The notes under the pieces are model-generated. The model was given only the letters and a program-made list of their open reading frames with translations. It did no database searches and was not told where the DNA came from. A stretch of 64,000 bases of DNA, taken from positions 27,385-91,384 of the forward strand of contig CAZBTX010000004.1 of NCBI GenBank assembly GCA_964494945.1, given 5' to 3'. Each line of letters begins with the position of its first letter. Position 1 is the stretch's first letter. This document shows positions 5,737 to 33,402 of this stretch, piece by piece. A program made the position numbers and the translations under genes. Source of the stretch: an uncultured Candidatus Saccharibacteria bacterium (lineage in GTDB: Bacteria; Patescibacteriota; Minisyncoccia; Sungbacterales; JACQCQ01).

Positions 5737-5789
5737 TTAAATTTTCCCCCCAAATGCCCCATCTTTTAGGATGAGGTGTGGGGGTTTAC
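5683..5789. repeat. Palindromic element family 2 copy (GTTTACCCCCACACC ... GGTGTGGGGGTTTAC) spanning GT2 stop and AsnB-like start
   Basis: It was verified. Confidence 0.65.
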
Positions 5790-5794
5790 AAAAC

Positions 5795-8286: not shown

Positions 8287-8354
8287 ATTGGACAAATACG
8301 AGCTATGAATGAGGAAGTATTCCGGCTAAATATTTCAAGGGTTAAATGGGCTGA

Positions 8355-8423
8355 TTTACTGAAAGCGAGAATACCACTTCAATTTTGCTGGAAGTTTACT
8401 GAAAGCCAGAGTAACACTTCAAT
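8355..8423. promoter_or_regulatory. Imperfect 29-bp tandem direct repeats (TTTACTGAAAGCGAGAATACCACTTCAAT / TTTACTGAAAGCCAGAGTAACACTTCAAT) upstream of GT gene
   Basis: It was read from the sequence. The repeat starts are 40 bp apart. Confidence 0.55.
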
Positions 8424-8498
8424 ACTGTACAGTATTTAAGTGAAGGGGATGCGATGTAGGCATGGGATGCGGTTTAAGCATTTAAGTACAAAATCAGT

Positions 8499-9611
8499 TT
8501 GAGTATAAAATCAGAAAGTATGTCAGAAAGCATGAAGGCATTTATTGTTACACGGAACGCTCCGGGAAAGGATTTTATCGGCGGCGCCGAGCTGCAGGCG
8601 TGGCTTATCACGAAATACTTGCGTAAGGATTATGGGTGGGAAACACTGTATGTCGCGCTGGAAGGCGAAACAGTGGGCAAAGAAACCAGAGACGACGCCG
8701 AGTTTTGTTATCTTTCAAGTAAAGGTGAAGAATTTTGGAGAAGTTTCCGCCGTTTCAGTGAACTCATTCGTGAAGAAAAGCCAGACCTTTGTTATATACG
8801 GGATTTTCGCTATCTCTTCCCGCTTGCTGTTGTGGCATGGATGCGGGGCATCCCAGTCGTATACAACACGACTCACGAAAAGAATCTTTATTTTTATTGC
8901 GGCTGGCAGGGCGTAAAGGGAACTCTTTTGCACGCTTTGTCTTTTATTGCACTCCATTTCGTGACCGTTATCACCAATAATGAGTCGCATGCCAAGAATC
9001 TGGCGACCCGCGGCATTAAAGCCACCGCCATCATGAACAGCATTGAGGACAATTATCGCGAGGGTATCGCCAAGAAAAAGCGCGTGGTATGGGTTGCTAA
9101 CTTAAAACCGAGAAAACGCCCCGAGCTTTTTATTGAATTGGCAGGACGTTTTCGCGGCTCCGGTTATGAATTTGTGATGATCGGTCATCTTCAGGCGGAT
9201 ACCGCGCGGTACCTGCGCTTGATAGACGAGGAAAGTACCTACAATCCCAATTTCCGTTATATGGGCGGGTTATCTTTGCACGAGGTTGACGAAATTCTGG
9301 CAGAATCAGAGATCTTTGTTTCCACCTGCAAACCGGAAGGATTTCCCAATAACATCATTCAAGCCTGTTTCGCTAAATGTGTTATCGTCAGTTTCAATTA
9401 CGACCCTGATGGAGTTCTGCGCCGTTACGCCGCGGGCTACGTTCCCAAGACATTTGATAGCATGGTTGAAGTAATTCAAAATCTTATGGCGGGGAATGCG
9501 GACAAGGAAATGGCGGAGCGGGCTCGGGCTTATGCTTTGGAACATCACTCCATCAGGCGGAATATGGCCCGCTTTAACGATGTTTTCCAAAATATAGCAG
9601 CGTCCCGATGA
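8499..9611 (+). CDS. GT-B fold glycosyltransferase (GT1/GT4-like)
   Basis: The N-terminal motif GGAE...L...L is typical of GT4. The protein is 370 aa. Confidence 0.5.
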   Translation: MSIKSESMSESMKAFIVTRNAPGKDFIGGAELQAWLITKYLRKDYGWETLYVALEGETVGKETRDDAEFCYLSSKGEEFWRSFRRFSELIREEKPDLCYIRDFRYLFPLAVVAWMRGIPVVYNTTHEKNLYFYCGWQGVKGTLLHALSFIALHFVTVITNNESHAKNLATRGIKATAIMNSIEDNYREGIAKKKRVVWVANLKPRKRPELFIELAGRFRGSGYEFVMIGHLQADTARYLRLIDEESTYNPNFRYMGGLSLHEVDEILAESEIFVSTCKPEGFPNNIIQACFAKCVIVSFNYDPDGVLRRYAAGYVPKTFDSMVEVIQNLMAGNADKEMAERARAYALEHHSIRRNMARFNDVFQNIAASR

Positions 9612-9621
9612 CGTAATTCGC

Positions 9622-11004
9622 ATGTCTCAATTTATATCAGAAGAAAAAAGTGAGAGCGTGGGACGCGCTGTAGCGCGCGGGGTGGTGATTTCGGGTAGTA
9701 CGAATGTCATACTCCGTTTTCTTGAAGCCGCGGTCGCGGTTCTTTTGCTTTCTCGGCTGTCAATTTTCCAGTACGGGGCTTATCAGCTTACACTTTCCGC
9801 TTTTGAGCTTTTTGCCGGGTTTTTCTTTGCGGGACTTTCTTCGGTTATCATAGCCGATGTTTCTCGCGAGGCCGCCGGGGATAATAAGTTCCAAGCGAAT
9901 ACGCTTTTCGGCGCTTATGCTTATTTCCAATTCGCCGTCAGCGTTTTTCTTTGGGCGGTTTTTTTCTTCGGCGCGAATCTATTGACGTATTGGGTGGGAG
10001 GAGAGACACAGCTTATCCGCATCGTCTCCTTCCTTTTTCTGGCAAGCCCGGCGGAACAGCTTTTGGGGCTTCATCTTCAAATACAACTTAAATTTTGGTG
10101 GCTGAATGCCTACAAGATACTTTACATGATATCTCGTCTCGGCATGCTGACGACGGTGTTTTTCCTGGGACTGCTTGACGCGAAATGGGCCGTGGTGAGC
10201 TTGGTTTTTTCCTCGGTCGCTGCGTCCTTAGTCGTTATACCCTTCGTCAGTTTTGTAAGTTCCATCGGCGCGCCACAACCGATGCGCCGAGCCAAAGCAC
10301 TTTTTGCGGTTATTAAAGAACACGGCAAGTGGGCTATTGTAAATGATTTCATAGGGAACATCGGTTCCTCTATTCGGCCTTTTCTTATCCGCATCTTTGT
10401 GGGCGTGGAAGCGGTTGCCGTATTCACCGTGGCGCAGAACTTCGCCGGCTATCTAAGTTCGGCGTTTCCTATCAGAGAAGTATTGTCGCCCATATTTCCG
10501 CGTCAAGCCCATGACGCCAAAGCGCTGGCCGCGACTTTTAATCGCGTCTTGAAATATTCCACCCTGGCTTTTTTGCTGATTGCCGCAGCTGGCGCCGTGG
10601 CAGTTCCGTTATTCGTAAAATTAGCTTTTCCCAAATACGTTCTTTCGCTCCCGTATTTATTTGTCTATCTTTTTGCCATGCCGCTTCTTGGTTTCCGACT
10701 TGCCGTAACTCCGCTTTTTGCCGCGCTTAAAAACCAAAAATTATTCTTTTCCATTACAATTTACCGCACCGCTACTTCCGCGCTTTTAGGCGCTCTACTG
10801 ATATGGCTTTGGGGCCTTTGGGGGGCGGCGTTGGAGGCCTCGTTCGGCGTAAGTTTATTGCTCTTGCCCGTCTATACCAAGGCCCTGAGGCGGATGCTTC
10901 CCGACTGGAAGTTTTCCGCGCGTGAATTCTTTGCCTTTAATCAGGACGACCGCCGTCTTGCTTCTGCAATCGTAAGGCGACTTAAACCGGCTTTTTGGAG
11001 ATAA
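9622..11004 (+). CDS. Wzx-like oligosaccharide flippase (MOP superfamily polysaccharide biosynthesis protein)
   Basis: It is 460 aa with about 12 predicted TM helices and sits in a glycan locus. Confidence 0.55.
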   Translation: MSQFISEEKSESVGRAVARGVVISGSTNVILRFLEAAVAVLLLSRLSIFQYGAYQLTLSAFELFAGFFFAGLSSVIIADVSREAAGDNKFQANTLFGAYAYFQFAVSVFLWAVFFFGANLLTYWVGGETQLIRIVSFLFLASPAEQLLGLHLQIQLKFWWLNAYKILYMISRLGMLTTVFFLGLLDAKWAVVSLVFSSVAASLVVIPFVSFVSSIGAPQPMRRAKALFAVIKEHGKWAIVNDFIGNIGSSIRPFLIRIFVGVEAVAVFTVAQNFAGYLSSAFPIREVLSPIFPRQAHDAKALAATFNRVLKYSTLAFLLIAAAGAVAVPLFVKLAFPKYVLSLPYLFVYLFAMPLLGFRLAVTPLFAALKNQKLFFSITIYRTATSALLGALLIWLWGLWGAALEASFGVSLLLLPVYTKALRRMLPDWKFSAREFFAFNQDDRRLASAIVRRLKPAFWR

Positions 11005-15305: not shown

Positions 15306-16128
15306 AACAAAAAAGCCGGATATGTTTCGCTTTGGACGGAATTGGGATAACTATGACCGGATGTATTCGAACCGCGGTCGTATCGATGAGGCGAAGAGCT
15401 CTCTTACGCGTTTCTTGAACAAGGAATCGTTAAAAGGTTTATCGTTCCTTGATATTGGAAGCGGCAGCGGCATATTTTCACTGGCTGCCTTTGAGTTAGG
15501 CGCAACGGTGGTCAGTTTTGATATTGATAACGATTCAGTTCTTGTGACGGAGCGCGTCTGGAAAATGGCCGGGGCTCCTTCAAATTGGAAAGTATTCCAC
15601 GGCTCGATTCTTGATGAGAAGTTTATCCGTTCCCTGGGCGAGTTTGACATAGTGTATTCCTGGGGCGTTTTGCATCATACCGGGTCAATGTGGCAGGCGA
15701 TTAAGAATGCGGCAAGTCTGGTGCGACAGGGCGGCCTGCTCCATATCGCCATCTACAATAAGTCGGAGGGCTGGGGGTTGCATCCCGATGGACGTTTGTT
15801 CCCTTCAAAATTCTGGCTTTGGGAAAAGCGGTTCTATTCGCGTCTCCCATGGTTTTTACAAAATATCATTGATTGGTTTTTAATGGCTATTCTTGTTTTG
15901 GGCTATTTGATAACATTTCAAAATCCAATAACAAAGATTCGCGGGCATATACGATATCGCGGCATGTCGTGGCGGATCGATATTAAAGATTGGCTCGGGG
16001 GGTATCCCTATGAATTTGCGAGCGCGGGGGAGATTTTTCGGTTCGTGAAGCCGCTAAGCTTCGTTTTGGAGAATTTGAACACTAATGACGGTCTTCTGAA
16101 TAATGAATTTCTTTTTAAAAAGATATGA
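15292..16128 (+). CDS. Class I SAM-dependent methyltransferase with C-terminal TM segment
   Basis: It carries the motif LDIGSGSGIFS. Confidence 0.6.
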   Translation: MGMNKTKKPDMFRFGRNWDNYDRMYSNRGRIDEAKSSLTRFLNKESLKGLSFLDIGSGSGIFSLAAFELGATVVSFDIDNDSVLVTERVWKMAGAPSNWKVFHGSILDEKFIRSLGEFDIVYSWGVLHHTGSMWQAIKNAASLVRQGGLLHIAIYNKSEGWGLHPDGRLFPSKFWLWEKRFYSRLPWFLQNIIDWFLMAILVLGYLITFQNPITKIRGHIRYRGMSWRIDIKDWLGGYPYEFASAGEIFRFVKPLSFVLENLNTNDGLLNNEFLFKKI

Positions 16129-17711
16129 ACCGCCAAATCTATCTTGATCACGCACTCGCGGCCTTACCTCGGGTATTAAGCGCGCTGAATCGTACGAAAG
16201 GAATGGAAAGTTTCGGCTGTTTTGACCGAAACTGGTGGCACTATAAAATCACCGATTTCCCCTCGGCGCGTATGCAAGAAGGGGTTTTGACGCTTGCCAT
16301 TCTTTGGAAAGGAGAGTGGAGCCCGTATCGCAGCGATGAAAAGATCTTTGAATGTATCAACGCCGCAATCGACTTTTGGATCTCGCGACAGCATCGGGGC
16401 GGCTCGGTGGAGGAGTGGTACCCGGGCGAGCGAAGCTTTGTGGCAACCGCTTTTTCGCTCTACGCCGTCTCCGAAACTCTGCTGTTAATCCCGGAGCTTA
16501 AGAATCGGCAAATACTTACAGCACACATCCGGCGTTCGGCTGACTGGCTCTTGGGGCGTAGAGAGGAAACGGTAACAAACCAAAATAGCGGGGCGCTGGC
16601 GGCTTTGTATAACGCTTTCCTGCTGACGGGCGATGAACGATATCGTCAGGCCTCAAAAAATCTGGCTAGATTCATAGCCAGCCGCCAATCAAGCGAAGGC
16701 TGGTTTCCCGAATACGGCGGGCCGGACATCGGCTACCTTTCGCTGACCATCGACTATCTCGCCAAATATTATTTGAAATCAAAGGACGACGAGGTAAAAC
16801 CGATGCTTGAAAAAGCCCTAGAGTTCATTTCGCACTTTATTCACCCCGACGGCAGTGCGGGCGGCATTTACGCAAGCCGTAATACCGCCTATCTTATTCC
16901 TTCCGGTTTTGAGGCGCTGGCGAGTGAGTTTCCTATCGCGGCCGCAATCGCAAAAAAAGTTCGCGTGGGTTATCAAACCAACGCCTTGCCGACACCCGAA
17001 ACACTCGATGATCGGTATCTTCTCCAAAATGGATACACATTCTTGCAGGCGCATATGACGGGACTGGCGCGCGAGGAATCCAATGTGCCTGAATTGCCGT
17101 GTGAGACAGAGCGTACTTTCCAATTCCCGCAAGCCGGTATATTGGTGCATTCTGACTCTAAGGTATATTTCGTGGTTAATACTAAAAAGGGCGGCGTTTT
17201 TTACCTGTACGACAAAGAGATAGGAAAAGGAGAATCAAGAGGCGGGCTTGTCCTGCGGCGCGCAAAAAAAGTATATGTTTCCGGCTCGCTGCAAACTCGA
17301 TCAGGGCTAACGAATGATGCGCCTCTTACATTTTTAATCCAAGGAAGTTTGGTGAGAGAAAAAGAGACAAAAGTTTCCGGGACATTCTTCTTTCTCTTGC
17401 GAGCGGCTCACGTTGTCTTTTCTTTTCTGCCGAACGGCGAACAATTCTTAAAGGTCTTTCTGCGTCGGGTGCTTATTTTAAATCGGCGGGAGAGCCGTTG
17501 GAAATTCTCGCGTAAATTCATTTATCAAAATGGGAAACTTGAAGTTGCCGATTATTTCCCGCCGCATATTTTCGATAAAGGATATGCCGGCGGATACGAA
17601 GAGTTCGTTTATGTTCCCTCAAGCCGGCTGTTTCTGGGGTCGCAGCTAAATTCGGACACGCGCGATATAAGCTCTGCCGATCTGAAAATCGGAAAGGTCA
17701 GAGTTTTTTAA
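16125..17711 (+). CDS. Hypothetical protein (possible alpha/alpha-toroid, heparinase II/III-like) in glycan locus
   Basis: It is 528 aa with no TM segment and W/Y-rich helical repeats. Its start is ATGA-coupled to the upstream methyltransferase. Confidence 0.25.
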   Translation: MNRQIYLDHALAALPRVLSALNRTKGMESFGCFDRNWWHYKITDFPSARMQEGVLTLAILWKGEWSPYRSDEKIFECINAAIDFWISRQHRGGSVEEWYPGERSFVATAFSLYAVSETLLLIPELKNRQILTAHIRRSADWLLGRREETVTNQNSGALAALYNAFLLTGDERYRQASKNLARFIASRQSSEGWFPEYGGPDIGYLSLTIDYLAKYYLKSKDDEVKPMLEKALEFISHFIHPDGSAGGIYASRNTAYLIPSGFEALASEFPIAAAIAKKVRVGYQTNALPTPETLDDRYLLQNGYTFLQAHMTGLAREESNVPELPCETERTFQFPQAGILVHSDSKVYFVVNTKKGGVFYLYDKEIGKGESRGGLVLRRAKKVYVSGSLQTRSGLTNDAPLTFLIQGSLVREKETKVSGTFFFLLRAAHVVFSFLPNGEQFLKVFLRRVLILNRRESRWKFSRKFIYQNGKLEVADYFPPHIFDKGYAGGYEEFVYVPSSRLFLGSQLNSDTRDISSADLKIGKVRVF

Positions 17712-19558: not shown

Positions 19559-20512
19559 TTAGAACCTCAAAGTTTCCTTAATGGGGAGTGCCGCGCCCGC
19601 TTCGGAAGTTTTGAATACGCGGTGCAACATTTCAGCCAAGAGTCCCATCAAAACGAATTGGACAGCGATCATGAAGAAAAATGTGGTGAGTACGGGCAAG
19701 GGGCTTTGGGTGAAGCGAAGCCCCTCGAGCAATTTGAGCAAGAGCATCCAAATAAAAGTTAGAAAGCCCAGAAATGCTGAAATAAATCCGGCTACTCCAA
19801 AAAAATGCATGGGCCGCGCCCCGTACTTCCCGAAGAAGTAAAAGACTATTACATCTAGAATCACGCGGAAAGTGCGCATCAGGCCGTATTTTGAAACCCC
19901 GTATCTCCGGCGCTGCCACGCGACCGGTACTTCGGCGACCCCGGCTCCGGCCGAGGCGGCGTAGGCGGGCATCAGGCGATGGATATCTCCCGAGAAGGGC
20001 AAAGACACCACCGATTCGCGCGCATAGGCCTTGAAAAACCCCCCATGGTCATGCAAGTGTACCCCGGTAACTTTGGAGATGAACCAGTTTGCCAGAACTG
20101 AAGGGATTTTGCGGGTTATCATCTCGCCCTGCCAGCGGTCTTTGCGCCAGCCGGATACGACGTCAAACCCCTCGTTCATTTTCTCCAAAAGAAGCGGTAT
20201 GTCTTCCGGAAGATTTTCCAAATCACCGTCCATAGTCACGATTATCTCGCCCTTTGACTCGCGCACCCCCGCCGCAGTTGCGGTAGTTTTGCCTGAATTA
20301 TGGGATAGCCGCACAATGGTGACGGGTCTTAGCACCTTTAACGCCTCAAGCGTACCGTCATTTGACCCGTCATCTACAAATATGATTTCAAAGCTTTTCA
20401 CGGCATCACTAAGGACCTTCGTCAGCCGTGCGTGAAGTTCCTTAACCGTCCCGGCTTCATTGCATACGGGAATGACTACCGAGACCTCCGTTTTCCTAGC
20501 TGAATCAGCCAT
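19559..20512 (-). CDS. GT2 polyprenyl-phosphate glycosyltransferase (Dpm1/GtrB/ArnC-like) with C-terminal TM helices
   Basis: It carries VVIPVCNE...DDGSNDGT...DGDL and two C-terminal TM segments. Confidence 0.7.
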   Translation of the reverse strand: MADSARKTEVSVVIPVCNEAGTVKELHARLTKVLSDAVKSFEIIFVDDGSNDGTLEALKVLRPVTIVRLSHNSGKTTATAAGVRESKGEIIVTMDGDLENLPEDIPLLLEKMNEGFDVVSGWRKDRWQGEMITRKIPSVLANWFISKVTGVHLHDHGGFFKAYARESVVSLPFSGDIHRLMPAYAASAGAGVAEVPVAWQRRRYGVSKYGLMRTFRVILDVIVFYFFGKYGARPMHFFGVAGFISAFLGFLTFIWMLLLKLLEGLRFTQSPLPVLTTFFFMIAVQFVLMGLLAEMLHRVFKTSEAGAALPIKETLRF

Positions 20513-20688
20513 TTTCGGTCAAGTGGATGATAGCTCAAATGCGGCGAGCGGACAACTTTCTTGATAAATTTGAACAATATTTATATAATTCCCTTCCTTG
20601 TTTTCTTCTAAAGCGATGGGGCCCAGAACGAATGCCTATAGTTCCTGCGTGTTGTCTCGCTATGGATGCCGAAGTAGAATAAAACAAT

Positions 20689-21411
20689 ATGTGGCCTCAA
20701 AAGATTGCCAGAGTCCTGGCGAATGAACTGCAGGTTTGGCGGCGCATGTTGTATAAAAAGACGGCAGTCGGTGGTGTCTCCGGAAAAACGCTGATTGATG
20801 CTTTTCATCGTCTTTACTACGATTCTTACGTTTGGAACGAAACAACTTGGTTCGGAGCCAAGGTAATGAAATATCCCGGAGACCTGGTTATTTATCAGCA
20901 GTTGGTGGCGGAAACTAAGCCGATGGTGATCATTGAAACAGGAACGGCACACGGCGGTTCAGCGCTTTTCTTCGCTCATCTCATGGATATTTTAGGTGGG
21001 GGAAAGGTGATTACGATTGATACCAAAGTTCAGCCCGGCCGTCCCGCGCATCCGAGAATTAAATATCTCACGGGATTTTCCACATCGCAGGATATAATGG
21101 AGCGGGTAAAAAATATGCTGCGACCCGGAGATAGAATAATGGCGGTGCTGGATTCGGATCACGGCAAAGATAACGTATCACGGGAATTGAAAGCATACTC
21201 GCCGCTCGTAACCCCAGGGAACTATCTTATTGTGGAAGACACGAACATCAACGGTCATCCGGTTTATCCGGCCTTCGGCCCCGGTCCCATGGAAGCGGTA
21301 GAGGAATTTTTGCGTGAGAACCATGATTTTGAGATTGACCGCGCTATGGAAAAGTTTTTGGTCACGTTCAATCCTTCCGGATTCTTAAAGAAGCGTAAAA
21401 CGGCAAAATGA
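20689..21411 (+). CDS. CmcI/cephalosporin-hydroxylase-family SAM-dependent O-methyltransferase
   Basis: It matches the family pattern IETGTAHGGSALFFA...DSDH. Confidence 0.65.
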   Translation: MWPQKIARVLANELQVWRRMLYKKTAVGGVSGKTLIDAFHRLYYDSYVWNETTWFGAKVMKYPGDLVIYQQLVAETKPMVIIETGTAHGGSALFFAHLMDILGGGKVITIDTKVQPGRPAHPRIKYLTGFSTSQDIMERVKNMLRPGDRIMAVLDSDHGKDNVSRELKAYSPLVTPGNYLIVEDTNINGHPVYPAFGPGPMEAVEEFLRENHDFEIDRAMEKFLVTFNPSGFLKKRKTAK

Positions 21412-22853
21412 ACATCATATATCGGCATATGAATAAATCCCCACACCTTCCCACGGGGTCTTCGGGAAGGTGTGGGGATAAATCGGAACGGCGAATATGG
21501 TTAGCCGCGCTAGCAGTTCGCCTTTTGGTGTTCGGTCTGATCATTTGGTCGCTCGGCGGCAACGGTCTTATATCGCTGGGAGACTCAAGTCAATATCTGC
21601 GTCTGGCTAAAGGGCTTTTGGATACCGGAACTCTTAGCGACCCCGGCTTTCCCGGTCTCATAGAGGGTACAAGGCCGCCTGGGTATCCCTTGTATCTCGC
21701 GGCATTCCTGTATTTCGGCGTTCCTTTATGGGTTGCTTCTCTTATTCAAATTATGGCGGCGAGTTTTATTCCCATTTTCGTAATGAAAATAGGAGTCCTT
21801 CTGGGTTTTGAGAGAAAGCTGGTTGCCATAGCCGGGTGGTTCACGACGCTTGAACCGCTTGAAGTTCTATACAGCGTAACGCTTCTTTCCGATGCCTTCG
21901 GCGCGCTTTTCTTTATCGCGGGAGCATATTTTCTGGTTCGTTTCTGGCGTACCAGAGCATGGAAAAATTTGATATTGGCATCGTTAATTTTGGGCGCGAT
22001 GAACTACGTACGACCCATCGCTCTATTTCTCTACATTTTGATACCGGCACTCATATTAGCAGCCGGTTTTATCCTTGAACGCTGGCGCTGGAAAGAGCAT
22101 TTAAAAGCCGCCGTCGTATTTGCCGCAGTTTTTTATTTGGTTTTAACACCTTGGCTCGCGCGAAATTATTACGATTTTAACCACTGGGGCTTCCTCTCCG
22201 CTAACAGCCGCCATCTTTATGATTATTCAGCGGTTGCCGTACGAGCGGCCGCAGAAGGAACAACGTATGAAGAGATGCGGCAAAAAATGAGAAGAGAGAT
22301 ACAGCCCCTGCTTCCTGAGCCGCGCGACATCCGGCAATTCGCTAATCAGGAAGTTTTAGGCAAGAAAGCGATTGAGATAATACTTCAGCATCCCAAAGAA
22401 TATGCCAAACTTTATTTTTTCTCCCTGCAAACATTTTTGATCTCCGGCAACTATCATTTCTTGATGGCTTTTTACGGTCTGATAGACGGCCCCAGTGCGG
22501 GGGATCAATCGTTCACGGTACTGCTTTCCAGCCGCAGTATCACCGATGGTTGGGCGGCGGTGAAGGCATTCATTAGTGAGCCCTATGGATTGATAGCGCT
22601 GATGGGTAGAGTCGTTTGGGGCCTGGTATTTGTTTTATCGCTTTTGGGGACGTGGGTCGCGTATAGGCGATATCCCGAGAGTCGTTTTGGCGCATTGTTT
22701 TATATTTTTCTCCTTTTTTATCTTGCGCTTATTACGTTGAGCTTAGTAACCGGCCTTGAGGCGCGGCACCGGCTGTTCGTGAACCCCTTCTACTTCCTGT
22801 TTATGTCTGCGGCTTTGACCTGGCTTTTTGGCAGATTAAGACGAGCGTCCTGA
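21408..22853 (+). CDS. ArnT/PMT-like (GT39/GT83) GT-C membrane glycosyltransferase
   Basis: It is polytopic and carries PPGYPLYLAAF. Its N-terminal tail contains a perfect 14-bp hairpin. Confidence 0.55.
   Translation: MNIIYRHMNKSPHLPTGSSGRCGDKSERRIWLAALAVRLLVFGLIIWSLGGNGLISLGDSSQYLRLAKGLLDTGTLSDPGFPGLIEGTRPPGYPLYLAAFLYFGVPLWVASLIQIMAASFIPIFVMKIGVLLGFERKLVAIAGWFTTLEPLEVLYSVTLLSDAFGALFFIAGAYFLVRFWRTRAWKNLILASLILGAMNYVRPIALFLYILIPALILAAGFILERWRWKEHLKAAVVFAAVFYLVLTPWLARNYYDFNHWGFLSANSRHLYDYSAVAVRAAAEGTTYEEMRQKMRREIQPLLPEPRDIRQFANQEVLGKKAIEIILQHPKEYAKLYFFSLQTFLISGNYHFLMAFYGLIDGPSAGDQSFTVLLSSRSITDGWAAVKAFISEPYGLIALMGRVVWGLVFVLSLLGTWVAYRRYPESRFGALFYIFLLFYLALITLSLVTGLEARHRLFVNPFYFLFMSAALTWLFGRLRRAS
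21439..21477. repeat. Perfect hairpin CCCCACACCTTCCC-N11-GGGAAGGTGTGGGG in N-terminal codons of GT-C gene (related CCCCACACC core)
   Basis: It was verified. Confidence 0.65.
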
Positions 22854-22881
22854 ATGGGTCGCGGCGCAATATACCGATAAA

Positions 22882-24192
22882 ATGGAATTTTCAAAGAAAA
22901 ACTATTTGATATTAGGCATAATTCTCGGCGCTATGATCCTGCGACTTTTTGCTTTTTCGTTCAATTATTTTACGCACGGGAACGTCAATGAGAACGCTAA
23001 AGCCGCCGTGGCTGTGGCATCGTCCTGGACGCTACGGGTAGCGGAGCCGTCTGATGAGCCGTACTGGTATTCCACCAAAGAATACGGCGGGAGGTATCTG
23101 GATTTGAACGCGCCTCTTTGGCCCACCATAGGGGGTGTATTGATGAAGTTCAGCGGTATTAAGCCGTCCGAGGCGAACGCATTCCTGCTTTTTAGAATAA
23201 TGTCATTGGTTGTAGGAATGGGCGTTGTGATATCGGGATATTTGGCCGGGAAAAGGATAATAAGTTCTGATGCCGGAATATTTCTTTCGGCGGTGCTGGG
23301 ACTTTCTTACGTCCTGGTAGATTATTCGGGGAACGGCGCCTTTTATATGGCGCAGGCCCTGCTTTATCTTCTTTGGGTTCTTGCGGCAATAAGTAGAATT
23401 CATTTTCGTGCGTTACTACTTGCCGTTCTTTCCGGCATCGGCTGGCTTTTGAATTATCAAGCCGTGGTGATGATCGCGGCAACCATAATCCTTATTCTTT
23501 GGGAGCGGCGTTTATGGAAAGAAAAGATGCAATCGGCGGGTTTGGCACTGGTTGTGTTTCTTCTGGTGATTTCGCCGCTTCTTATAAGAAATGCCCGGGT
23601 CTTCGGAGACCCTCTTCATACGACCAAAATAAATCTAACTTATGTCTGGAACAAAGCCGGGCTTACGCCGGTAATAGAAGGCCCAGTTAAAACTTTCCAC
23701 CTTGGTTTTGCGGATAAACTTCGCGTGGCCGAGAGCGCCCTTTTGGAATGGCTGCCGCACAACGCCTACTACGTCGCGAGGAAACTTTTTGTGCTTTTGC
23801 CCGTACTTTTTATCTTGGCGCTCTACGGCGCCGTAGACCTTGCTTTTTCTAAGGAACGCAGAAACCGTGTGTTCCCGGTTATTTTGCTCCTGGGGTTGGC
23901 CCTGTCGCAGATGCTGACCTGGCCCATTGTGCAATTCCGTTATTTCGTTCCTATAATCTCGTTGGCGGCACTTATAGGCGTTGAGTTCCTGTATAATTCT
24001 ATTCGGCAATCTGGTGCGAGATATCTCTTAATGGCGGGAACGCTGGCGGGGCTCGTACTCGTGGGATTTCTGTTGTTTAACTCCAATCCTCTTCATGTCT
24101 GTTATTATGATTGCGCGGTGACCACCGGCCCTTTAGGGAGAAACGAAGAGCTGGAACATTTGCGGGCCAATAATCCCTCGCTACTGCCATGA
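22882..24192 (+). CDS. Polytopic membrane protein, possible second GT-C/ArnT-like transferase
   Basis: It is 436 aa with many TM helices. Confidence 0.3.
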   Translation: MEFSKKNYLILGIILGAMILRLFAFSFNYFTHGNVNENAKAAVAVASSWTLRVAEPSDEPYWYSTKEYGGRYLDLNAPLWPTIGGVLMKFSGIKPSEANAFLLFRIMSLVVGMGVVISGYLAGKRIISSDAGIFLSAVLGLSYVLVDYSGNGAFYMAQALLYLLWVLAAISRIHFRALLLAVLSGIGWLLNYQAVVMIAATIILILWERRLWKEKMQSAGLALVVFLLVISPLLIRNARVFGDPLHTTKINLTYVWNKAGLTPVIEGPVKTFHLGFADKLRVAESALLEWLPHNAYYVARKLFVLLPVLFILALYGAVDLAFSKERRNRVFPVILLLGLALSQMLTWPIVQFRYFVPIISLAALIGVEFLYNSIRQSGARYLLMAGTLAGLVLVGFLLFNSNPLHVCYYDCAVTTGPLGRNEELEHLRANNPSLLP

Positions 24193-24299
24193 GACCGGAA
24201 AGCATCAAATTCTTAAAACGTATCCTCCAGTGGTTTGTTGCCGCTGGTCTCGTTTTCATATTTATTGAAGGAGTGCTTTTACGACTACACTAGCGAAAC

Positions 24300-24342: not shown

Positions 24343-25770
24343 ATGGATAAAGGAGAAAATAAAGCAGTAGTTATTATCGGAGCCGGGCCGGCAGGGCTTA
24401 CGGCCGCGTATGAATTGGCTAAACGCGGCACCCGTTCAATTATTCTTGAAAAGGACTCGGTGGTCGGCGGCATCGCGCGCACGGTTCTCTATAAAGGATA
24501 TCGTTTTGACATCGGCGGGCACCGCTTTTTCACAAAAGTGGAGTGCGTGTTCAAAATGTGGCAGGAGGTGCTCGGTGCCGATTTTCTGAAACGCCCCCGG
24601 CTTTCCAGGATATATTACAAAGGAAAGTTCTTTTTTTATCCCTTAAAGGCGCTGGATGTCGTAAGAAAGCTTGGGTTGAAAGAAACATTTCTATCGGGTC
24701 TTTCCTACGTTTGGGCGCGCGTAAAAAAGCGGCCGAGGGAAGATTCGTTCGAAGATTACATTATCAATCACTTCGGGACTCGGTTATATCGCACTTTTTT
24801 CAAATCATATACCGAAAAGGTCTGGGGGATACCCTGTACCGAGATCAAGGCCGAGTGGGCGGCACAGCGCATCAAGGGACTTTCGCTTACGAGCCTTTTG
24901 AAGGCGACCCTCTTCGGCAACCGGAGAAATAAAATAAAGACCCTGATAGAAGAATTTTATTATCCCCGGCTTGGGCCCGGCATGATGTGGCAGAAAACCA
25001 AGGACTTGGCGGAACATTCCGGTTACGGAAAAGTGCTTTTTAAGACGGTGCCGGTTGCCATCCATCATGACAGTTCGCGAATAACCGCCGTTACGATACG
25101 CGGCGATAACGGCAAGGAAGAAACCATTGAAACAGACGCGGTGATATCAAGCATGCCGCTTTCCGAACTTTTCCGGCTTTTCCGGCCAGAGCTTGACGGG
25201 AAGATACTCAAAGCCGCCGCTTCTCTTCATTATCGGGATTTTATAACCGTAGCGCTTGTGCTGGATAAAGAGCATCTTTTTGGAGACAACTGGATATACG
25301 TGCACGAGCCGGGCGTGCTGCTCGGCCGCATTCAAAATTTCAAGAACTGGTCTCCAAGCATGGTGCCGGATGCTTCTAAAACCTGCCTGGGTCTTGAGTA
25401 TTTTTGTTTTACCTCGGACCCTATATGGAAAATGACGGACGAGGTCCTGGTGAATCTCGGCGCCGCAGAACTTGAGAAAATCGGCCTTGCCCAAAAGTCG
25501 GATGTCGTTGACGGAGCGGTGGTGCGGATGGAGAAAACCTATCCCGTGTACGACGATGCCTATGAAAAAGCCATGCCGCTCATAAAAGACGCGGCGGCGA
25601 AATTTCCCAATCTCTATCCGGTAGGCCGGAACGGCATGCACAAATACAACAATCAGGATCACGCTATGTATACCGCCATGCTGGCGGTAGAGAATATTTT
25701 CGGCGCGCGGCATAATCTCTGGGATGTCAACGTGGAGCGGGTGTATCACGAGGAGGTTCAGCGTACTTAG
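24343..25770 (+). CDS. FAD/NAD(P)-binding oxidoreductase (amine-oxidase/phytoene-desaturase-like)
   Basis: It carries [12 protein letters not shown]....GG, the dinucleotide-binding motif. The start was chosen at MDKGENK rather than the read-through at 24235. Confidence 0.6.
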
Positions 25771-25826
25771 AGAAACTTGATGGCTTGCTGGGCAGTTTCA
25801 CTAATTAGTTGTATAAATATTTTGGT

Positions 25827-26555
25827 ATGGAAATACTCGCAGTCATTCCCGCCAGAGGCGGGTCAAAGGGCATACCGCGGAAAAATATTAAACTGCTTTG
25901 CGGCAAGCCATTGATTGCTTGGACGATTGAGGAAGCAAAAAAGTCAAAGCATTTGACTCGCGTTATCGTTTCCACCGACGACGAAGAGATCGCGGAAGTT
26001 GCGAAACGATACGGCGCGGAAGTGCCTTTTATGCGTCCTCCCGAAATTTCCGGCGATTTGGCTACCGATGTAGAATTTCTGACGCACGCGCTGGATTTTT
26101 TGAAAGAAAAAGAAAATTACGAACCGGAAATAATTTTGCGTTTGCCGCCGACCTCACCCCTCCGCACGGCGGCGCATATTGATGAAGGCATAGAAGTTTT
26201 ATTAAAAAATCCCGAGGCTGACGCCTCGCGGCCCATGACGGAGGCTCCCAAGCATCCATATAAAATGTGGCGCGTTTCTGCGGAAGATGAGCGTTTTGTG
26301 GAGCCGTTTCTGCCAAAGTCATTTACTCAAATAGACGAACCGTATAACTTGCCGCGCCAGGCCTTGCCGAAAGCCCATATTCATACGGGTGCTATGGATG
26401 TGATGCGGCTTCGCACCGTACGTGAAATGAAATCAACCTCGGGCAAAAAGCTCGCGTATTTTTTCATGAAGCCGGAAGATTCCATAAATATTGATACGCC
26501 GGTTGATTTTGAATTGGCCGAGATCCTGCTGAAAAAGAGGATCGCGCAAGGGTAA
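25827..26555 (+). CDS. CMP-nonulosonic acid synthetase (acylneuraminate cytidylyltransferase family, NeuA/PseF/LegF-like)
   Basis: It carries ILAVIPARGGSKGIPRKN. Confidence 0.75.
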   Translation: MEILAVIPARGGSKGIPRKNIKLLCGKPLIAWTIEEAKKSKHLTRVIVSTDDEEIAEVAKRYGAEVPFMRPPEISGDLATDVEFLTHALDFLKEKENYEPEIILRLPPTSPLRTAAHIDEGIEVLLKNPEADASRPMTEAPKHPYKMWRVSAEDERFVEPFLPKSFTQIDEPYNLPRQALPKAHIHTGAMDVMRLRTVREMKSTSGKKLAYFFMKPEDSINIDTPVDFELAEILLKKRIAQG

Positions 26556-26642
26556 ATTCCGGGAAACCGGCGCCTTGCCAAAGTGGTTTCAAGTATATAG
26601 AATCTATCGGTCAATTTGGTATTGCGAAATTAAATATTCTTA

Positions 26643-27995
26643 ATGAGTGAGAAGAAGATTATTTTCATGACGGTGGAGACCAGCATGGCGGCCAAGGAGT
26701 TTTTGCGCTCGGGAGCGTTTCCTATTCTGAAATCCAAACGCCGCGTGGTGCTCTTCGTTCCGGCCGACAAAGTCGCTTACTACCAGAAGCAGTACGGCGG
26801 AGATTCGGTCTTCATTGAGCCCTTGCCGGAGATTAAGCGCCAAGGGCTGCATTTGATTATTAAAAATGTTGCCTTCAACAGTCTTTCTACGGCGAGCGTC
26901 TGGTATCGCATCTGGGAATCGTATTATTTGACCCATCGGCCGTGGAATCTTGCCATGCGCATTATTTTCTGGCACCTCGGCAAACTAAGAATTTGGCGCG
27001 AAGCCACACGCTTGGCCGAATGGCTGATGCGAGATGATGAGATCTGGCGAACAGTTTTTAATAAATACAATCCGGATTTTGTGCTGTGCACTAATGTCAT
27101 CGGCGAAGCCGACATCTCGTTGATGAAACATGCCAGGCGCCGCGGCAGGGGGGCTTACGCCATGATCCGCGGTTGGGACAACTTAACCTCCAAGGGCACC
27201 ATTCGCTTCAAGCCCGATCAGTTGATGGTTTATAACGAGAATATTAAGCGAGAGGCCGTTGAGTACGGCGACATGCGCGCCGAAAGGATAACCGTTGTAG
27301 GTATGCCGCATTATGATTCATACGTTAATTCCGGATTCTATTGGACGCGGGAGGAATTTTTTCTCCGCCTTGGTCTTGACCCGGCCAAAAAGCTGATTGT
27401 GTATGCCATGGGCGGCAATATCGCGGTTGAGGATCCTTACAATCACGCCAAGATGATAAATGACGCCATTGACAGAGGCGACTTGCCCCCAACTCAGCTT
27501 CTTATAAGAGCTCATCCCAAGTACGATATGACCGTATCGGATATCAGCCAGCTTAAGCACGTGAAATTTTATCAGCCCGGCAAAAAGGTCGCCGGCACCA
27601 GGGGCTGGGAGTTCGAAAAGGAAGACACGATGATCTTGATCAATACGGTTCGCTGGAACGACATTAACATCAACTCGGGTTCCGGCCAGACCCTGGAATC
27701 AGTCATGTTTGACCGGCCGGTGGTGATTTTGGGATTCAACGGATACAAACCCGTGCCTTGGCATAAAAATGTCGGAACCGGGCTCGATCTTTTCACGCAT
27801 TATCGGTACATTGTCCGTTCCGGCGGGGTTACCCGCGCCAATAACGAGCAAGAATTGATTGCGGCCTGTCGCGCCTATCTTGCAAATCCCGCATTGCATC
27901 GAGACGGCAGAAAGCGCATGGTGGAAGATATCGCGGGCAAACTCGATGGCAAATCCAGCGAGCGTCTGGCTACGGCGATTTTGTCGTTGGCGTAA
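26643..27995 (+). CDS. GT-B-like capsule/teichoic-type glycosyltransferase (TagF/KpsS-like); candidate nonulosonic-acid transferase
   Basis: It is 450 aa with no TM segment. Its position right after the CMP-sugar synthetase supports the call. The family assignment is inferred. Confidence 0.3.
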   Translation: MSEKKIIFMTVETSMAAKEFLRSGAFPILKSKRRVVLFVPADKVAYYQKQYGGDSVFIEPLPEIKRQGLHLIIKNVAFNSLSTASVWYRIWESYYLTHRPWNLAMRIIFWHLGKLRIWREATRLAEWLMRDDEIWRTVFNKYNPDFVLCTNVIGEADISLMKHARRRGRGAYAMIRGWDNLTSKGTIRFKPDQLMVYNENIKREAVEYGDMRAERITVVGMPHYDSYVNSGFYWTREEFFLRLGLDPAKKLIVYAMGGNIAVEDPYNHAKMINDAIDRGDLPPTQLLIRAHPKYDMTVSDISQLKHVKFYQPGKKVAGTRGWEFEKEDTMILINTVRWNDININSGSGQTLESVMFDRPVVILGFNGYKPVPWHKNVGTGLDLFTHYRYIVRSGGVTRANNEQELIAACRAYLANPALHRDGRKRMVEDIAGKLDGKSSERLATAILSLA

Positions 27996-31108: not shown

Positions 31109-32698
31109 ATGGGTGACCACGCGATGCAGTCAACACTAGGGAACAAAGGAAAATTTGACTTCAACGGCCTTTTTACCTTTGAGATGGCGAACAACCATCA
31201 GGGGTCGGTGGAGCACGGAAAACGCATCATCCAGGAGATGGCGGCTTTGGCGCGAAAACACGGTGTTCGCGCCGCGGTTAAACTCCAATTCAGGGACTTG
31301 GATACCTTTATTCATCCCGATTACCGCGAGAGCACCGAAAATAAGCACATTCAGCGTTTTCTTTCTACGCGGCTTTCGGAGGATGAATTCGGTGAACTTT
31401 TGGCGGAAATAAAAAGCCACGGACTGCTTACGATGGTAACGCCCTTTGACGAAGCGTCCGTGGACGCGATTGAGCGTCTGGGCGCGGATATCATAAAGAT
31501 AGGCAGTTCATCGGCGCATGATTGGCCACTGCTTGAAAGAATTGCCGATACGGGAAAGCCGGTGATTTGCTCCACCGGGGGTTTAATGATCCGTGATATT
31601 GACAGAGTTGTCTCGTTTTTTCAGCACCGCGGCGTGCATTTTGCCATAATGTACTGTGTTTCCATGTACCCGACGCCGAATAATAAACTTCATTTGAATC
31701 AAATTGCCATCATGCGCAATCGTTATCCGGACATAACGGTTGGATGGTCCACGCACGAAAGCCCGTCGGATACCCATACGGTGCGCCTGGCTTACGCCAA
31801 GGGCGCCAGGATATTTGAAAAACACGTGGGAGTGCCGACGGATGAGATTAAATTGAATGCTTACTCCGCAACACCCGAAGAAGCAGACGCCTGGGTCGCG
31901 GCTTATAAGGAAGCGGTTGAGGCCTGCGGTGATAACGCGGAACGCGAAATTGATGAGAAAGAAACAGCCGATTTGAAGTCCCTGATGCGCGGAGTTTACG
32001 CCAAAAAGGAAATTAAAGCCGGTGAGCCGATAAAACGCTCGGACGTATTTTTCGCCATGCCGATAATGGAGGGGCAATTAACCAGTGGCAAATGGAAAGA
32101 GGGGCTTTTGGCTGACCGCGATTATCACGTTCACAAACCCGTAAGCGAGCGCATTTACCCCAATCATAAAAGTAAGAAAGAAATAATTTACTCCACCATA
32201 CACGCCGTAAAGGGCATGCTGAATACCGCGCGCATCCCGCTGGGGCATGATTTTTCCGTGGAGATCTCGCATCACTACGGCGTGGAAAACCTGCATAAGA
32301 TAGGATGCCTTTTGATAGAATGCATTAACCGCGAATACGCCAAGAAGATAATTGTCCAGTTGCCGGGACAGTGGAACCCGGTGCACTACCATAAGAAAAA
32401 GGATGAAACGTTCCAACTGCTTTACGGCGAGTTGTATGTGGAAATTGAAGGCAAAAAGAAAATGCTCTATCCCGGCGATTCGCTTTGGGTTCCTCGTGGC
32501 GTTTGGCACTCTTTCGGTACGGCGACTGGAGCCATCTTTGAAGAAATTTCCACCGCGAGTTTCAACGACGATTCATTTTATGTTGACCGCGAGATAGCCA
32601 AAATGGCTAGGGACGACAGGAAGACCCGGCTCCAAAATTGGGGTCGGCATCAGTTTGATGAGGTTAAAGAAGAAGAGCTAGCTAAGAGTTTGCGCTGA
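31109..32698 (+). CDS. NeuB-family nonulosonic acid synthase fused to C-terminal cupin domain
   Basis: It carries FEMANNHQGS and has the NeuB TIM-barrel length. The C-terminus carries the cupin signature HYH...LYPGDSLWVPRGVWHSF. Confidence 0.7.
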   Translation: MGDHAMQSTLGNKGKFDFNGLFTFEMANNHQGSVEHGKRIIQEMAALARKHGVRAAVKLQFRDLDTFIHPDYRESTENKHIQRFLSTRLSEDEFGELLAEIKSHGLLTMVTPFDEASVDAIERLGADIIKIGSSSAHDWPLLERIADTGKPVICSTGGLMIRDIDRVVSFFQHRGVHFAIMYCVSMYPTPNNKLHLNQIAIMRNRYPDITVGWSTHESPSDTHTVRLAYAKGARIFEKHVGVPTDEIKLNAYSATPEEADAWVAAYKEAVEACGDNAEREIDEKETADLKSLMRGVYAKKEIKAGEPIKRSDVFFAMPIMEGQLTSGKWKEGLLADRDYHVHKPVSERIYPNHKSKKEIIYSTIHAVKGMLNTARIPLGHDFSVEISHHYGVENLHKIGCLLIECINREYAKKIIVQLPGQWNPVHYHKKKDETFQLLYGELYVEIEGKKKMLYPGDSLWVPRGVWHSFGTATGAIFEEISTASFNDDSFYVDREIAKMARDDRKTRLQNWGRHQFDEVKEEELAKSLR

Positions 32699-32757
32699 AA
32701 CGCCGAACTTTTTGCTTGCTCTTTTTCAGGTATGCGAAACCAAAGGAGACAACTCTC

Positions 32758-33402
32758 ATGATAAAAGTAGTGGTGTTTGACTTCGACGACACGCTGGTTC
32801 GCGGGACGGAGTGGAAGAAACAAACCGCGTTTTGGAGTATATTCTGCGACATTCCCGGCGCGGAGGATAAAGCACGGGCGTTCACGATAGAACACCCGGG
32901 CACGGGTCGTCTGGACATGATAACTGGCATTCTGGCGGAACTGGAGCGTTTCGGCATTTTGGACGGCCCCGCTTCGGCAGAATACTATCTAGCGCGCTAT
33001 ACTAAGGCGGCAGAAGACCTACAATCGGCTGCGCCGGCGACGCCGGGTGCCGAAAAAGCGCTTGATGACCTGGTTCGGGCAGGCATCTTGGTCGCTTTGA
33101 ATTCCGCGACGCCCCAGGAGGCGATAGAGCGAGTGCTGGAGATTCGGGGCTGGCGGCATAAATTTGCGGCAGTATGCGGTGCCCCACCCGGCACCAAGAT
33201 GGAGAATCTCGGCAAGATTCTGGCACTCCTCGGCGTTCAAGGACACGAGACCGCGGTTGTCGGAGACGGGCAATCGGACTTGGACGCGGCGATGCGGCAC
33301 GACTGCCGTTTTGTAGCCATTCGCGGCGGGTTATCTCGTTTCGGCCGTAAGGATATGATGATACTGGACGACCTTAACGGCCTCCTGACGGCGTTGGATT
33401 AA
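32758..33402 (+). CDS. HAD-superfamily hydrolase/phosphatase
   Basis: It carries VVVFDFDDTLV, motif I. The start was chosen at MIKVVV. Confidence 0.65.
   Translation: MIKVVVFDFDDTLVRGTEWKKQTAFWSIFCDIPGAEDKARAFTIEHPGTGRLDMITGILAELERFGILDGPASAEYYLARYTKAAEDLQSAAPATPGAEKALDDLVRAGILVALNSATPQEAIERVLEIRGWRHKFAAVCGAPPGTKMENLGKILALLGVQGHETAVVGDGQSDLDAAMRHDCRFVAIRGGLSRFGRKDMMILDDLNGLLTALD

Follow-up and report, generated by a model that had tools for sequence, protein, structure and literature searches.

The 64,000-nucleotide window analysed here, chromosomal DNA of a bacterium of the Candidate Phyla Radiation (CPR/Patescibacteria), probably encodes a multi-component module for glycosylation at the outer face of the membrane, embedded in a gene cluster for a Wzx/Wzy-type exopolysaccharide (EPS) or surface glycan. 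The principal parts are a polyprenyl-phosphate glycosyltransferase of family GT2 (PPGT) and three glycosyltransferases of the GT-C type, referred to below as GT-C1, GT-C2 and the YfhO-like protein. This view is supported directly by the folds, by the helices that define the topology of the PPGT, by acidic residues in the first loop (loop 1) of two of the three GT-Cs, and by synteny. All open reading frames (ORFs) named in a preliminary description of this DNA were present; their positions are collected in Table 1. The kind of system, multi-component transmembrane glycosylation, is well known, and what we contribute is a well-supported annotation, not a new mechanism.

The PPGT and the GT-C proteins

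The best NCBIfam match of the PPGT was the ArnC model NF007986 (E=1.4e-47, residues 8-305 of 317), with PgfS second (E=6e-33) and AglJ also matching (E=2e-22). Because the ArnC match reached 162.2 bits against an equivalog cut-off of 529, the protein is ArnC-like but no ArnC orthologue, and its sugar specificity was left unassigned. The PPGT aligned end-to-end with the solved ArnC structure 9bhc (E=6e-41, residues 2-304 versus 2-303) and over its full length with the solved GtrB/sll0501 structure 5ekp (E=4e-28, residues 7-305 versus 25-320), and its catalytic domain matched Pyrococcus dolichol-phosphate mannose synthase (DPMS; 5mlz, E=9e-17). The DxD motif, D95-G-D97, aligned to D-A-D of ArnC, and two hydrophobic C-terminal helices (about 235-265 and 270-297, by hydropathy) aligned with the two C-terminal helices of ArnC. 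Thus, the PPGT is predicted to be membrane-anchored, with a cytoplasmic GT-A domain and two C-terminal transmembrane (TM) helices. The full-length colinearity with ArnC and GtrB, the DxD motif and the two helices bear out the preliminary description of a Dpm1/GtrB-type GT2 with a C-terminal TM anchor; a soluble GT2 would have spoken against that description, and the anchor is there. The second GT2 of the region (4888-5736) was considered as a further lipid-sugar synthase and rejected, since TM segments are absent from it and comparison with the PPGT gave no match at E<1e-3.

GT-C1 and GT-C2 share about 25% identity over 150 aa in BLASTP (E=4e-4) and a profile-profile (hhalign) probability of 96.5%, and by these alignments they are distant paralogues. 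Both Pfam matches of GT-C1 stayed below the gathering threshold (GA), with 24.1 bits versus 26.1 for PMT_2 (PF13231) and 19.5 versus 22.7 for PMT (PF02366); many of its homologues bear a precomputed PF13231 annotation. GT-C2 passed PF13231 narrowly (28.3 versus 26.1 bits) and did not match PF02366. Profiles of the two families retrieved nothing meaningful from the PDB sequences, and for this reason we turned to fold comparison. Apart from oligosaccharyltransferases (OST), the top fold matches were ArnT, Pmt4, Pmt2, ALG12, GPI-MT-I and AftA, with Pmt1 also among the top; the best structural match of GT-C1 was ArnT. The donors of ArnT, Pmt4, Pmt2, ALG12, GPI-MT-I and AftA are polyprenyl-monophosphate sugars. 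The modelled GT-C fold of both proteins is solid. Matches are spread over ArnT, ALG12, OST, Pmt and AftA, and since Pmt is equalled or outscored by the other four, the fold gives no particular preference to protein O-mannosyltransferases. The earlier assignment of GT-C1, and possibly of GT-C2, as ArnT/PMT-type enzymes thus holds for the GT-C fold, and not for the PMT domain, which is sub-threshold in GT-C1 and absent from GT-C2.

In GT-C1, the first-loop residue D59 (in G-D-S) lies just past TM1 and ahead of the first juxtamembrane helix, and of 26 family sequences at least 90% have Asp at this position. Residues R89, P91, G92, Y93, Q114, W249, R252, R453, R455 and P460 are invariant, and an invariant motif R89-x-P-G-Y-P comes after D59. 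The GT-C2 family, for which an exhaustive profile search of a 1.84-billion-protein library gave 3,908 proteins at E<=1e-3, carries the motif W-N-x-F-x-H-[GA]-D-[VI]-x-x-D after TM1. We counted the loop-1 position in 144 rows, made up of the best 150 of the 3,908 proteins together with earlier matches, wherever the position was covered: 139 rows have Asp and 5 have Asn. Of the five Asn rows, one is GT-C2 of the window, one (P0041) is identical to it, and two are the proteins most closely related to it, P0042 and P0043. The Asn34 residue of GT-C2 stands opposite D59 of GT-C1 in the hhalign alignment (codons 34-38 correspond to 22981-22995). The second Asp of the motif (+4) is also Asn, and D147, N151 and G152 are kept, as are the other conserved residues. 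One helical turn after Asn34 (+3, N-V-x-E-N) lies E37, which is clade-specific: among 12 aligned sequences only those with Asn34 have it. Three Asn34/Glu37 sequences are only 52-56% identical to GT-C2 of the window. Because Asn34/Glu37 is common to such diverged sequences and the other conserved residues are kept, purifying selection is indicated rather than decay. Asn34/Glu37 therefore looks like a maintained variant, which might represent a relocated carboxylate or mark a non-catalytic partner. The string S-D58-E59-P of GT-C2 was considered as a PMT-like DE motif and discarded, the positions not being conserved in the family.

The third GT-C gave a direct PF09586 match that covers residues 740-798 only and stays below threshold (E=3e-4, 19.6 bits versus GA 28.5). 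Its full-length homologues P0054 (27% identity, 98% coverage, E=5e-69), P0055 and others do carry PF09586. The N-terminal half of the protein is polytopic, and about 290 aa at the C-terminal end form an extracytoplasmic domain. In a family alignment (A3) a first-loop acid is present in all 9 sequences (D43 in the window); W66, P68, G73, P75, P761, W763 and D768 do not vary, and a YPGW..VDG motif is present towards the C-terminus. Judged from this homology the protein is a divergent YfhO-type GT-C. This confirms the YfhO-like GT-C noted before, on the strength of full-length homology to PF09586 proteins and of D43, with a direct Pfam match that is weak and C-terminal. The preliminary description had also made its proposal depend on an acidic motif in the first loop of the GT-Cs: such an acid is found in GT-C1 (D59) and the YfhO-like protein (D43), but GT-C2 has Asn34 there and its apparent DE is not conserved.

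The flippase is the weakest step. The cluster's only small-transporter candidate is the 124-aa protein, which the preliminary description had called GtrA/SMR-like. Its four hydrophobic segments and its drug/metabolite transporter/small multidrug resistance (DMT/SMR) type were upheld, whereas membership of the GtrA family was not, with no match to GtrA (PF04138) at E<=0.01. Weak matches were obtained to EamA (E=1e-5, below GA) and to TMEM234 (at E<=0.01), and those to ArnE (E=4e-6, 26.9 versus 92 bits) and ArnF (E=3e-5, 24.4 versus 99 bits) indicate resemblance at superfamily level. The protein is accordingly no more than a candidate flippase for the lipid-linked sugar, in a role without synteny support. 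A GtrA gene elsewhere in the window was also considered and rejected: nothing matched, and the densely packed cluster leaves no spare coding space for a small gene. The Wzx-type protein, which is probably the exporter of the polyprenyl-diphosphate (PP)-linked repeat unit, would be an equally reasonable candidate for flipping the phosphate-linked sugar.

Gene order in the window and in related loci

The PPGT stop codon and the start of the AsnB-type amidotransferase gene are separated by 1 nt, and the two genes are probably co-translated. The best NCBIfam match of this AsnB protein was the XrtA/PEP-CTERM EPS amidotransferase TIGR03108 (E=3e-154, below cut-off). In four loci (L041, L044, L045, L046) an AsnB orthologue (35-45% identity) immediately follows the PPGT homologue, and in four others (L110, L072, L080, L014) it is nearby; these orthologues match the window's other AsnB less well (29-35% identity). 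Hence, PPGT-AsnB is a conserved, often adjacent gene pair across several metagenomic lineages. The substrate that AsnB amidates may be a carboxylated sugar used by the PPGT.

On the opposite strand, the stop codon of the CmcI-type methyltransferase gene overlaps the start of GT-C1 by 4 nt, and GT-C2 starts 28 nt after GT-C1. The CmcI protein has no TM segments by hydropathy, and the sugar O-methyltransferase said to accompany the set is indeed there (20689-21411), its PF04989 match being well above threshold. It remained below the cut-off of the equivalog NF045824 (E=3e-52, 177 versus 400 bits), and so its substrate was left unassigned. The divergent gap between the PPGT and CmcI genes contains a sigma-70-like site on the plus strand (20561-20589, TTGATA-17-TATAAT, 11/12 match) that was the best in the 10 kb scanned, and a weaker promoter-like site on the minus strand (20555-20527). 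The total of such sites in the scanned stretch (17-27 kb) was not above shuffled expectation, and the site is suggestive only. The hairpin downstream of GT-C2, which a pattern match listed first among the terminator-like sites of the scanned region, is a probable end of the CmcI-GT-C1-GT-C2 transcript. These predicted signals would agree with a divergent pair of units, one of PPGT-AsnB and the other of CmcI-GT-C1-GT-C2. In CPR glycan clusters, GT-C genes recurrently have a methyltransferase gene as direct neighbour, and the families involved are unrelated (CmcI, Methyltransf_23/11 and a GT2-methyltransferase fusion; L008 11293-12957; L007 8276-9178; L010 9400-10008; window 20689-21411), which suggests that O-methylated sugars are a common theme of these clusters.

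The order CmcI-then-GT-C1 is kept in L005/L006 (55% and 60% identity), where the GT-C1 homologues are surrounded by genes for Wzx, a carbamoyltransferase and, in L006, an 806-aa YfhO orthologue (36% identity). Homologues of GT-C2 were found in 26 loci of GTDB genomes, almost all of them from Peribacteria/Peregrinibacteria and other CPR. Short DPM1-like GT2 genes directly adjoin the GT-C2 homologue in L017, L019 and L036, and the GT2 of L019 had a solved DPMS as best match (E=3e-16). Near GT-C2 homologues, L014 (44% identity) and L023 encode full PPGTs of the ArnC type, each with the pair of C-terminal helices, and GtrA genes lie near such homologues in L010, L012, L016, L019, L028 and L031. 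The reverse comparison started from 80 metagenomic PPGT homologues, with 53 loci evaluable for polytopic neighbours. In the locus of the closest homologue (L039) a GT-C1-like gene lies directly upstream, and in L096 and L118 YfhO-like genes are found about 1 kb from the PPGT homologue. This recurrence across loci supports a functional link of this kind of GT2 with these GT-C families.

Downstream of GT-C2, and separated from it by the terminator-like hairpin, lies a gene for a flavoenzyme resembling eukaryote-type UDP-galactopyranose mutase (UGM); the mechanical ORF starts at 24235 and its probable ATG is at 24343. The closest solved relatives are T. cruzi UGM (4dsg, E=8e-21, residues 44-491) and A. 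fumigatus UGM. The alignment shows conservation of a GGH loop, the R of 'R..F.N.S', YP and GR.G..Y..NQDH, which, by the A. fumigatus numbering, would correspond to named active-site residues of UGM. The protein probably supplies a furanose nucleotide sugar. Orthologues of 33-75% identity are adjacent to, or one gene away from, GT-C2 homologues in seven loci (L010 at 7741-9390, L011 at 3185-4615, L022, L024, L025, L026 and L037), and in L012 (9941-11605) the distance is about 6.6 kb. Including the window, 9 loci have a UGM-like gene within about 7 kb of a GT-C2 homologue, mostly as its immediate neighbour, and in L033 it is more distant. The idea of an obligatory partner of GT-C2 was rejected, because most Peribacteria loci have no such gene within 10 kb; the association is recurrent, not universal. 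In L010 and L012 GtrA lies directly upstream, and this synteny hints at furanose in these glycans, possibly as a lipid-linked hexofuranose donor.

The surrounding glycan cluster

Positions 1-39,538 (about 39.5 kb) form a single tightly packed glycan-biosynthesis cluster, which beyond the PPGT encodes five GT4s and one soluble GT2. Its tailoring genes comprise a PgaB/IcaB-like deacetylase, four S-adenosylmethionine (SAM) methyltransferases, a NodU-like carbamoyltransferase and three AsnB-family proteins, and a TupA-like ATP-grasp enzyme is encoded as well. Because the cluster includes an initiating polyprenyl glycosylphosphotransferase (PGT) of the EPS type, we assign it to a PP-linked polysaccharide pathway, with the Wzy_C-TPR protein as candidate polymerase or ligase of the glycan. 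SecA, SecD and SecF are encoded downstream of the cluster. A tRNA scan of the window found none, and base composition showed no island-like break around 19559-24192.

Table 1. Features of the glycosylation set and its surroundings (positions in the window; GA, gathering threshold)
Feature	Position	Strand	Basis
124-aa protein with four TM segments, DMT/SMR type (EamA half-domain, ArnE/ArnF-like)	2534-2908	+	four hydrophobic segments
Wzx-type (Polysacc_synt) flippase	9622-11004	+	PF01943 E=6e-7, 29.6 bits vs GA 28.2; many hydrophobic segments
YfhO-like protein, divergent YfhO-family GT-C, 813 aa	12864-15305	+	homology to PF09586 proteins
AsnB-type glutamine amidotransferase, 619 aa	17698-19557	-	Asn_synthase E=7e-92, with GATase_7
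PPGT (GT2, ArnC/GtrB/CsbB type), 317 aa	19559-20512	-	PF00535 E=1.7e-28
Divergent intergenic region PPGT(-)/CmcI(+), 176 nt	20513-20688		best sigma-70-like site of the 17-27 kb stretch
CmcI/rhamnosyl-O-methyltransferase-family SAM methyltransferase, 240 aa, soluble	20689-21411	+	PF04989 E=3e-61, 207.2 bits vs GA 23.2
GT-C1, GT-C-fold membrane glycosyltransferase, 481 aa, no large soluble domain	21408-22853	+	high-confidence structure models
GT-C2, second GT-C-fold glycosyltransferase, 436 aa, other subfamily than GT-C1	22882-24192	+	high-confidence structure models
Terminator-like hairpin (24227-24247) with T-rich tail	24227-24257	+	8-bp stem, 5 GC pairs
UGM-like flavoenzyme, PRK07208 family	24343-25770	+	NF005548 E=7e-205
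Wzy_C (O-antigen ligase/polymerase-type) membrane protein with C-terminal TPR fusion, 750 aa	34676-36928	+	PF04932 E=2.5e-20; TPR families
Initiating PGT, EPS type (Bac_transf)	36925-38412	-	PF02397 E=1.6e-53; TIGR03025 (EPS_sugtrans) 307.6 bits vs curated cut-off 295.55

In the stretch 34676-39538 the Wzy_C-TPR gene is followed by the convergent PGT gene and then by a GT4 gene. The same order is found in L007 (12755-19768), a CPR locus with a GT-C1 homologue, the Wzy_C-TPR orthologue there being 41% identical. A nonulosonic-acid branch at 25809-27995 and 31109-33402 comprises a PseF-like cytidylyltransferase, a NeuB/PseI-like synthase with a C-terminal cupin fusion, which was seen in L011 too, a HAD phosphatase and a soluble 450-aa protein with a weak match to the BFO_1060-family glycosyltransferase. 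Between a methyltransferase gene and the AsnB gene next to the PPGT, a soluble 528-aa protein (16125-17711) gave weak pectate lyase matches in Pfam and NCBIfam, and the precomputed Pfam annotation of the contig lists it, weakly, as Ulvan_lyase_N; it could be a glycan-processing enzyme. One of the three AsnB-family genes (5771-7153) encodes a 460-aa asparagine-synthase-domain protein that lacks the N-terminal glutamine amidotransferase domain. Unrelated to the glycosylation set, a protein at 58966-60015 combines sigma-70 region 4 with HARE-HTH domains. With respect to the host, the database entry of a protein that shares 97% identity with GT-C1 (P0001) reads 'glycosyltransferase family 39 protein [Candidatus Sungbacteria bacterium]', and taxon labels among the relatives conflict, since GCA_964579195.1, the source of 56-61%-identical homologues (L005, L013), is labelled uncultured Candidatus Saccharibacteria; a safe assignment goes no further than CPR/Patescibacteria.

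Proposed route, competing explanations and known systems

We propose that the PPGT would load polyprenyl phosphate with one sugar, taken from a nucleotide sugar, at the cytoplasmic face, and that the AsnB amidotransferase and the soluble CmcI protein would probably tailor that sugar or its precursor. The lipid-linked sugar might then be flipped by the ArnE/F-like protein or by Wzx, and at the outer face one or more of GT-C1, GT-C2 and the YfhO-like protein would transfer it to different positions or acceptors; the three GT-Cs would thereby serve three positions or acceptors from one donor. The likeliest acceptor would be side-branches on the cluster's own polysaccharide, which would be initiated by the PGT, built by the five GT4s and one GT2, exported by Wzx and polymerised or ligated by the Wzy_C-TPR protein. 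This polysaccharide is the most economical acceptor because a PP-linked pathway of the Wzx/Wzy type is encoded in full around the set.

Several points weigh against this proposal. The enzymatic activity, the sugar, the flippase and the acceptor are all inferred, and the donor type is taken from fold analogy, GT-C1 and GT-C2 having no solved relatives at sequence level. The candidate flippase is encoded at a distance of 17 kb from the PPGT gene, reached none of the family cut-offs and had no homologue in the approximately 110 related loci searched (L005-L118). GT-C2 has Asn34 (N34-V35) in place of the family's conserved Asp. Related loci do not always have their PPGT and GT-C genes side by side; in 33 of the 53 PPGT loci an ORF for which 8 or more TM segments are predicted lies within 5 kb, a count without a chance baseline. 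The genes of the set extend across about 22 kb, and a single synthase stands against three GT-Cs. The preliminary description of a three-component outer-face arrangement stands in so far as the parts lie together in one glycan cluster, but there is neither a GtrA nor a compact three-gene operon. Precedents for such departures are known: one synthase can feed several GT-Cs, as Listeria GttA feeds two, and the flippase can be of a non-GtrA type or encoded elsewhere, Wzx-type flippases serving the GacI/J/K/L system (PMC8035078). Decoration of wall polymers by PMT_2 and YfhO GT-Cs is also on record (PMC8035078, PMC11127046). Literature searches on CPR glycosylation and on a lipid-linked galactofuranose donor found nothing relevant.

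The preliminary description had likened the set to O-mannosylation. Transfer by the PMT_2-type GT-Cs to Ser/Thr of secreted or S-layer/pilin proteins, following the Ppm1/Pmt and PgfS/PgfM1/PgfM2 models, would agree with the weak PMT_2 and PMT matches and with PgfS as second-best NCBIfam match of the PPGT (E=6e-33); small GT-Cs without carbohydrate-binding domains could use protein acceptors, and a streptococcal GT2 plus GT-C system for proteins is documented in PMC12041528. However, PF02366 is below cut-off in GT-C1 and absent from GT-C2, no DE dipeptide occurs at the loop position (D59-S60 in GT-C1, N34-V35 in GT-C2), and the fold matches ArnT, ALG12, OST and AftA as well as or better than Pmt. 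In addition, the window has no genes for GDP-mannose or mannose activation, which is not decisive, and the genes lie inside a polysaccharide cluster both here and in several homologue loci. We consequently gave up the resemblance to O-mannosylation, given these results and the Wzx/Wzy_C/PGT context, and consider protein acceptors unlikely. A little less likely still is a second glycan primed through a monophosphate, in which the PPGT would prime an oligosaccharide instead of making a side-branch donor, some of the cytoplasmic GT4 and GT2 enzymes would elongate it on polyprenyl monophosphate, Wzx would flip it and the GT-Cs would polymerise it and ligate it to another polymer. Its model is the lactococcal polysaccharide pellicle (PSP)/WpsA pathway, with a GacI/WpsA-type GT2 primer, a Wzx-like flippase and the GT-Cs WpsH/WpsJ as polymerase and ligase (PMC10821137), and in its favour the window has many cytoplasmic glycosyltransferases (five GT4s and one GT2), only one Wzx, and three GT-Cs, a number of GT-Cs beyond the needs of a single decoration. 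Yet the conventional PGT and Wzy_C already explain the PP-linked pathway, the PPGT is of the self-anchored ArnC/GtrB type and not a GacI plus GacJ, the window encodes no Lcp-type ligase and no second flippase, and the two short GT-Cs are without the additional domains that polymer-handling enzymes usually have.

An ArnT-like decoration of a membrane lipid or lipoglycan, with a glycolipid or a lipoteichoic-acid-like anchor as acceptor, appears quite improbable. ArnC is the best match of the PPGT, the 124-aa protein matches ArnE and ArnF, and YfhO enzymes glycosylate lipoteichoic acid (LTA) in Bacillus and Staphylococcus (PMC8035078). Every Arn match is nevertheless far below its equivalog cut-off, and the window has no LTA synthase. 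A full Arn pathway was rejected for the same scores, for the absence of ArnA- and ArnB-type genes, and since the cluster's deacetylase is PgaB/IcaB-like and gave no ArnD match. Moreover, CPR bacteria are not known to have lipid A, which also counts against a lipid acceptor. We give very little credence to mere co-location, according to which the PPGT and the GT-Cs would be independent, GT-C2 decaying or non-catalytic, and the donors made elsewhere in the genome. The Asp lost from GT-C2, the spread of the parts over 22 kb and several related loci with a GT-C and no recognisable PPGT within 10 kb would be in line with it, but the Asn34/Glu37 pair shared by diverged sequences, together with the other conserved residues kept, points to purifying selection, and the combination of a PPGT-type GT2 with a GT-C is repeated in many loci.

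Decoration of the cluster's own polysaccharide therefore remains the explanation that we favour. A more specific idea, namely unusual sugars added by an undescribed outer-face route with a polyprenyl-phosphate hexofuranose donor, a uronic acid amidated by PPGT-AsnB and a variant or partner role of GT-C2, is speculative and in our estimate improbable. If true, the hexofuranose part would extend the three-component pentofuranose pathway to hexofuranoses, and GT-C2 would have a relocated carboxylate (Asp34 to Asn, Glu37 gained) or act as a non-catalytic partner of GT-C1. The predicted enzymes do suggest tailored donor sugars (furanose, uronamide, O-methyl). CPR/Patescibacteria are uncultivated, ultra-small and mostly episymbiotic, and their surface chemistry is essentially uncharted. 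On our proposal, CPR bacteria would encode all that is needed to decorate surface glycans outside the membrane by way of a lipid carrier, in a cluster that combines several GT-Cs with heavy sugar tailoring (methylation, amidation, carbamoylation, nonulosonic acid, possibly furanose). Phage and host recognition usually depends on decorations of this kind, and for this reason a part in CPR-host attachment is plausible. Testable leads are the Asp-to-Asn GT-C clade, the GT-C/UGM-like/GtrA synteny and the PPGT-AsnB pair.

Among characterised systems, CsbB/GtcA/YfhO, GtlA/GtlB, CsdAB-CflA and GacI/J/K/L of Gram-positive bacteria likewise combine an anchored GT-A polyprenyl-phosphate-sugar synthase with PMT_2- or YfhO-type GT-Cs in a single-membrane cell, with one synthase for several GT-Cs, wall-polymer acceptors and a flippase that may be non-GtrA (PMC8035078). 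In contrast to these, the window has no GtrA/GtcA and an ArnE/F- or EamA-like small transporter instead, three GT-Cs of three subfamilies in one cluster, a YfhO member so divergent that only its last 60 residues match the Pfam model, and an uncultivated CPR host with no teichoic acid genes evident in the window. The GtrA/GtrB/GtrC systems of Shigella and Salmonella phage, which glucosylate O-antigen, share the GtrB-type GT2 (5ekp, full length) and a polytopic transferase that modifies a Wzx/Wzy-made polysaccharide after its export. They differ in having GtrA, in serotype-specific Gtr transferases unrelated in sequence to the ArnT/PMT-like GT-Cs, and in their compact three-gene phage cassettes, whereas the genes of the window are chromosomal and embedded in a cluster.

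The ArnC/ArnE-ArnF/ArnT pathway provides the best match of the PPGT, the best structure for GT-C1 and, in ArnE and ArnF, the named hits of the 124-aa protein, but the scores are far below cut-offs, ArnA, ArnB and ArnD are absent, and a lipid A acceptor is not expected in CPR. The Ppm1/Pmt systems of Actinobacteria and PgfS/PgfM1/PgfM2 of streptococci also pair a GT2 synthase with PMT-like GT-Cs at the outer face; the best results of the fold comparison include Pmt4, Pmt2 and Pmt1, and PgfS is the second-best family of the PPGT. Here, by contrast, the PMT domain is sub-threshold, and there is no DE, no mannose activation and a polysaccharide context. Finally, the three-component pentofuranose systems, made up of a polyprenyl phosphoribose synthase, a MATE flippase and a GT136 GT-C (Kelly et al. 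2024, PMC11127046), resemble the proposed route in that a GT-C adds side-chains outside the cytoplasm after polymerisation, from a lipid-linked monosaccharide, and in that auxiliary enzymes diversify the sugar; with a UGM-like gene adjoining GT-C2, a furanose is perhaps involved here as well. The synthase of the window is a GT2 and not a UbiA-type phosphoribosyltransferase, no MATE flippase is present, the GT-Cs are PMT_2- or YfhO-like, and any furanose would be a putative, mutase-made hexofuranose.

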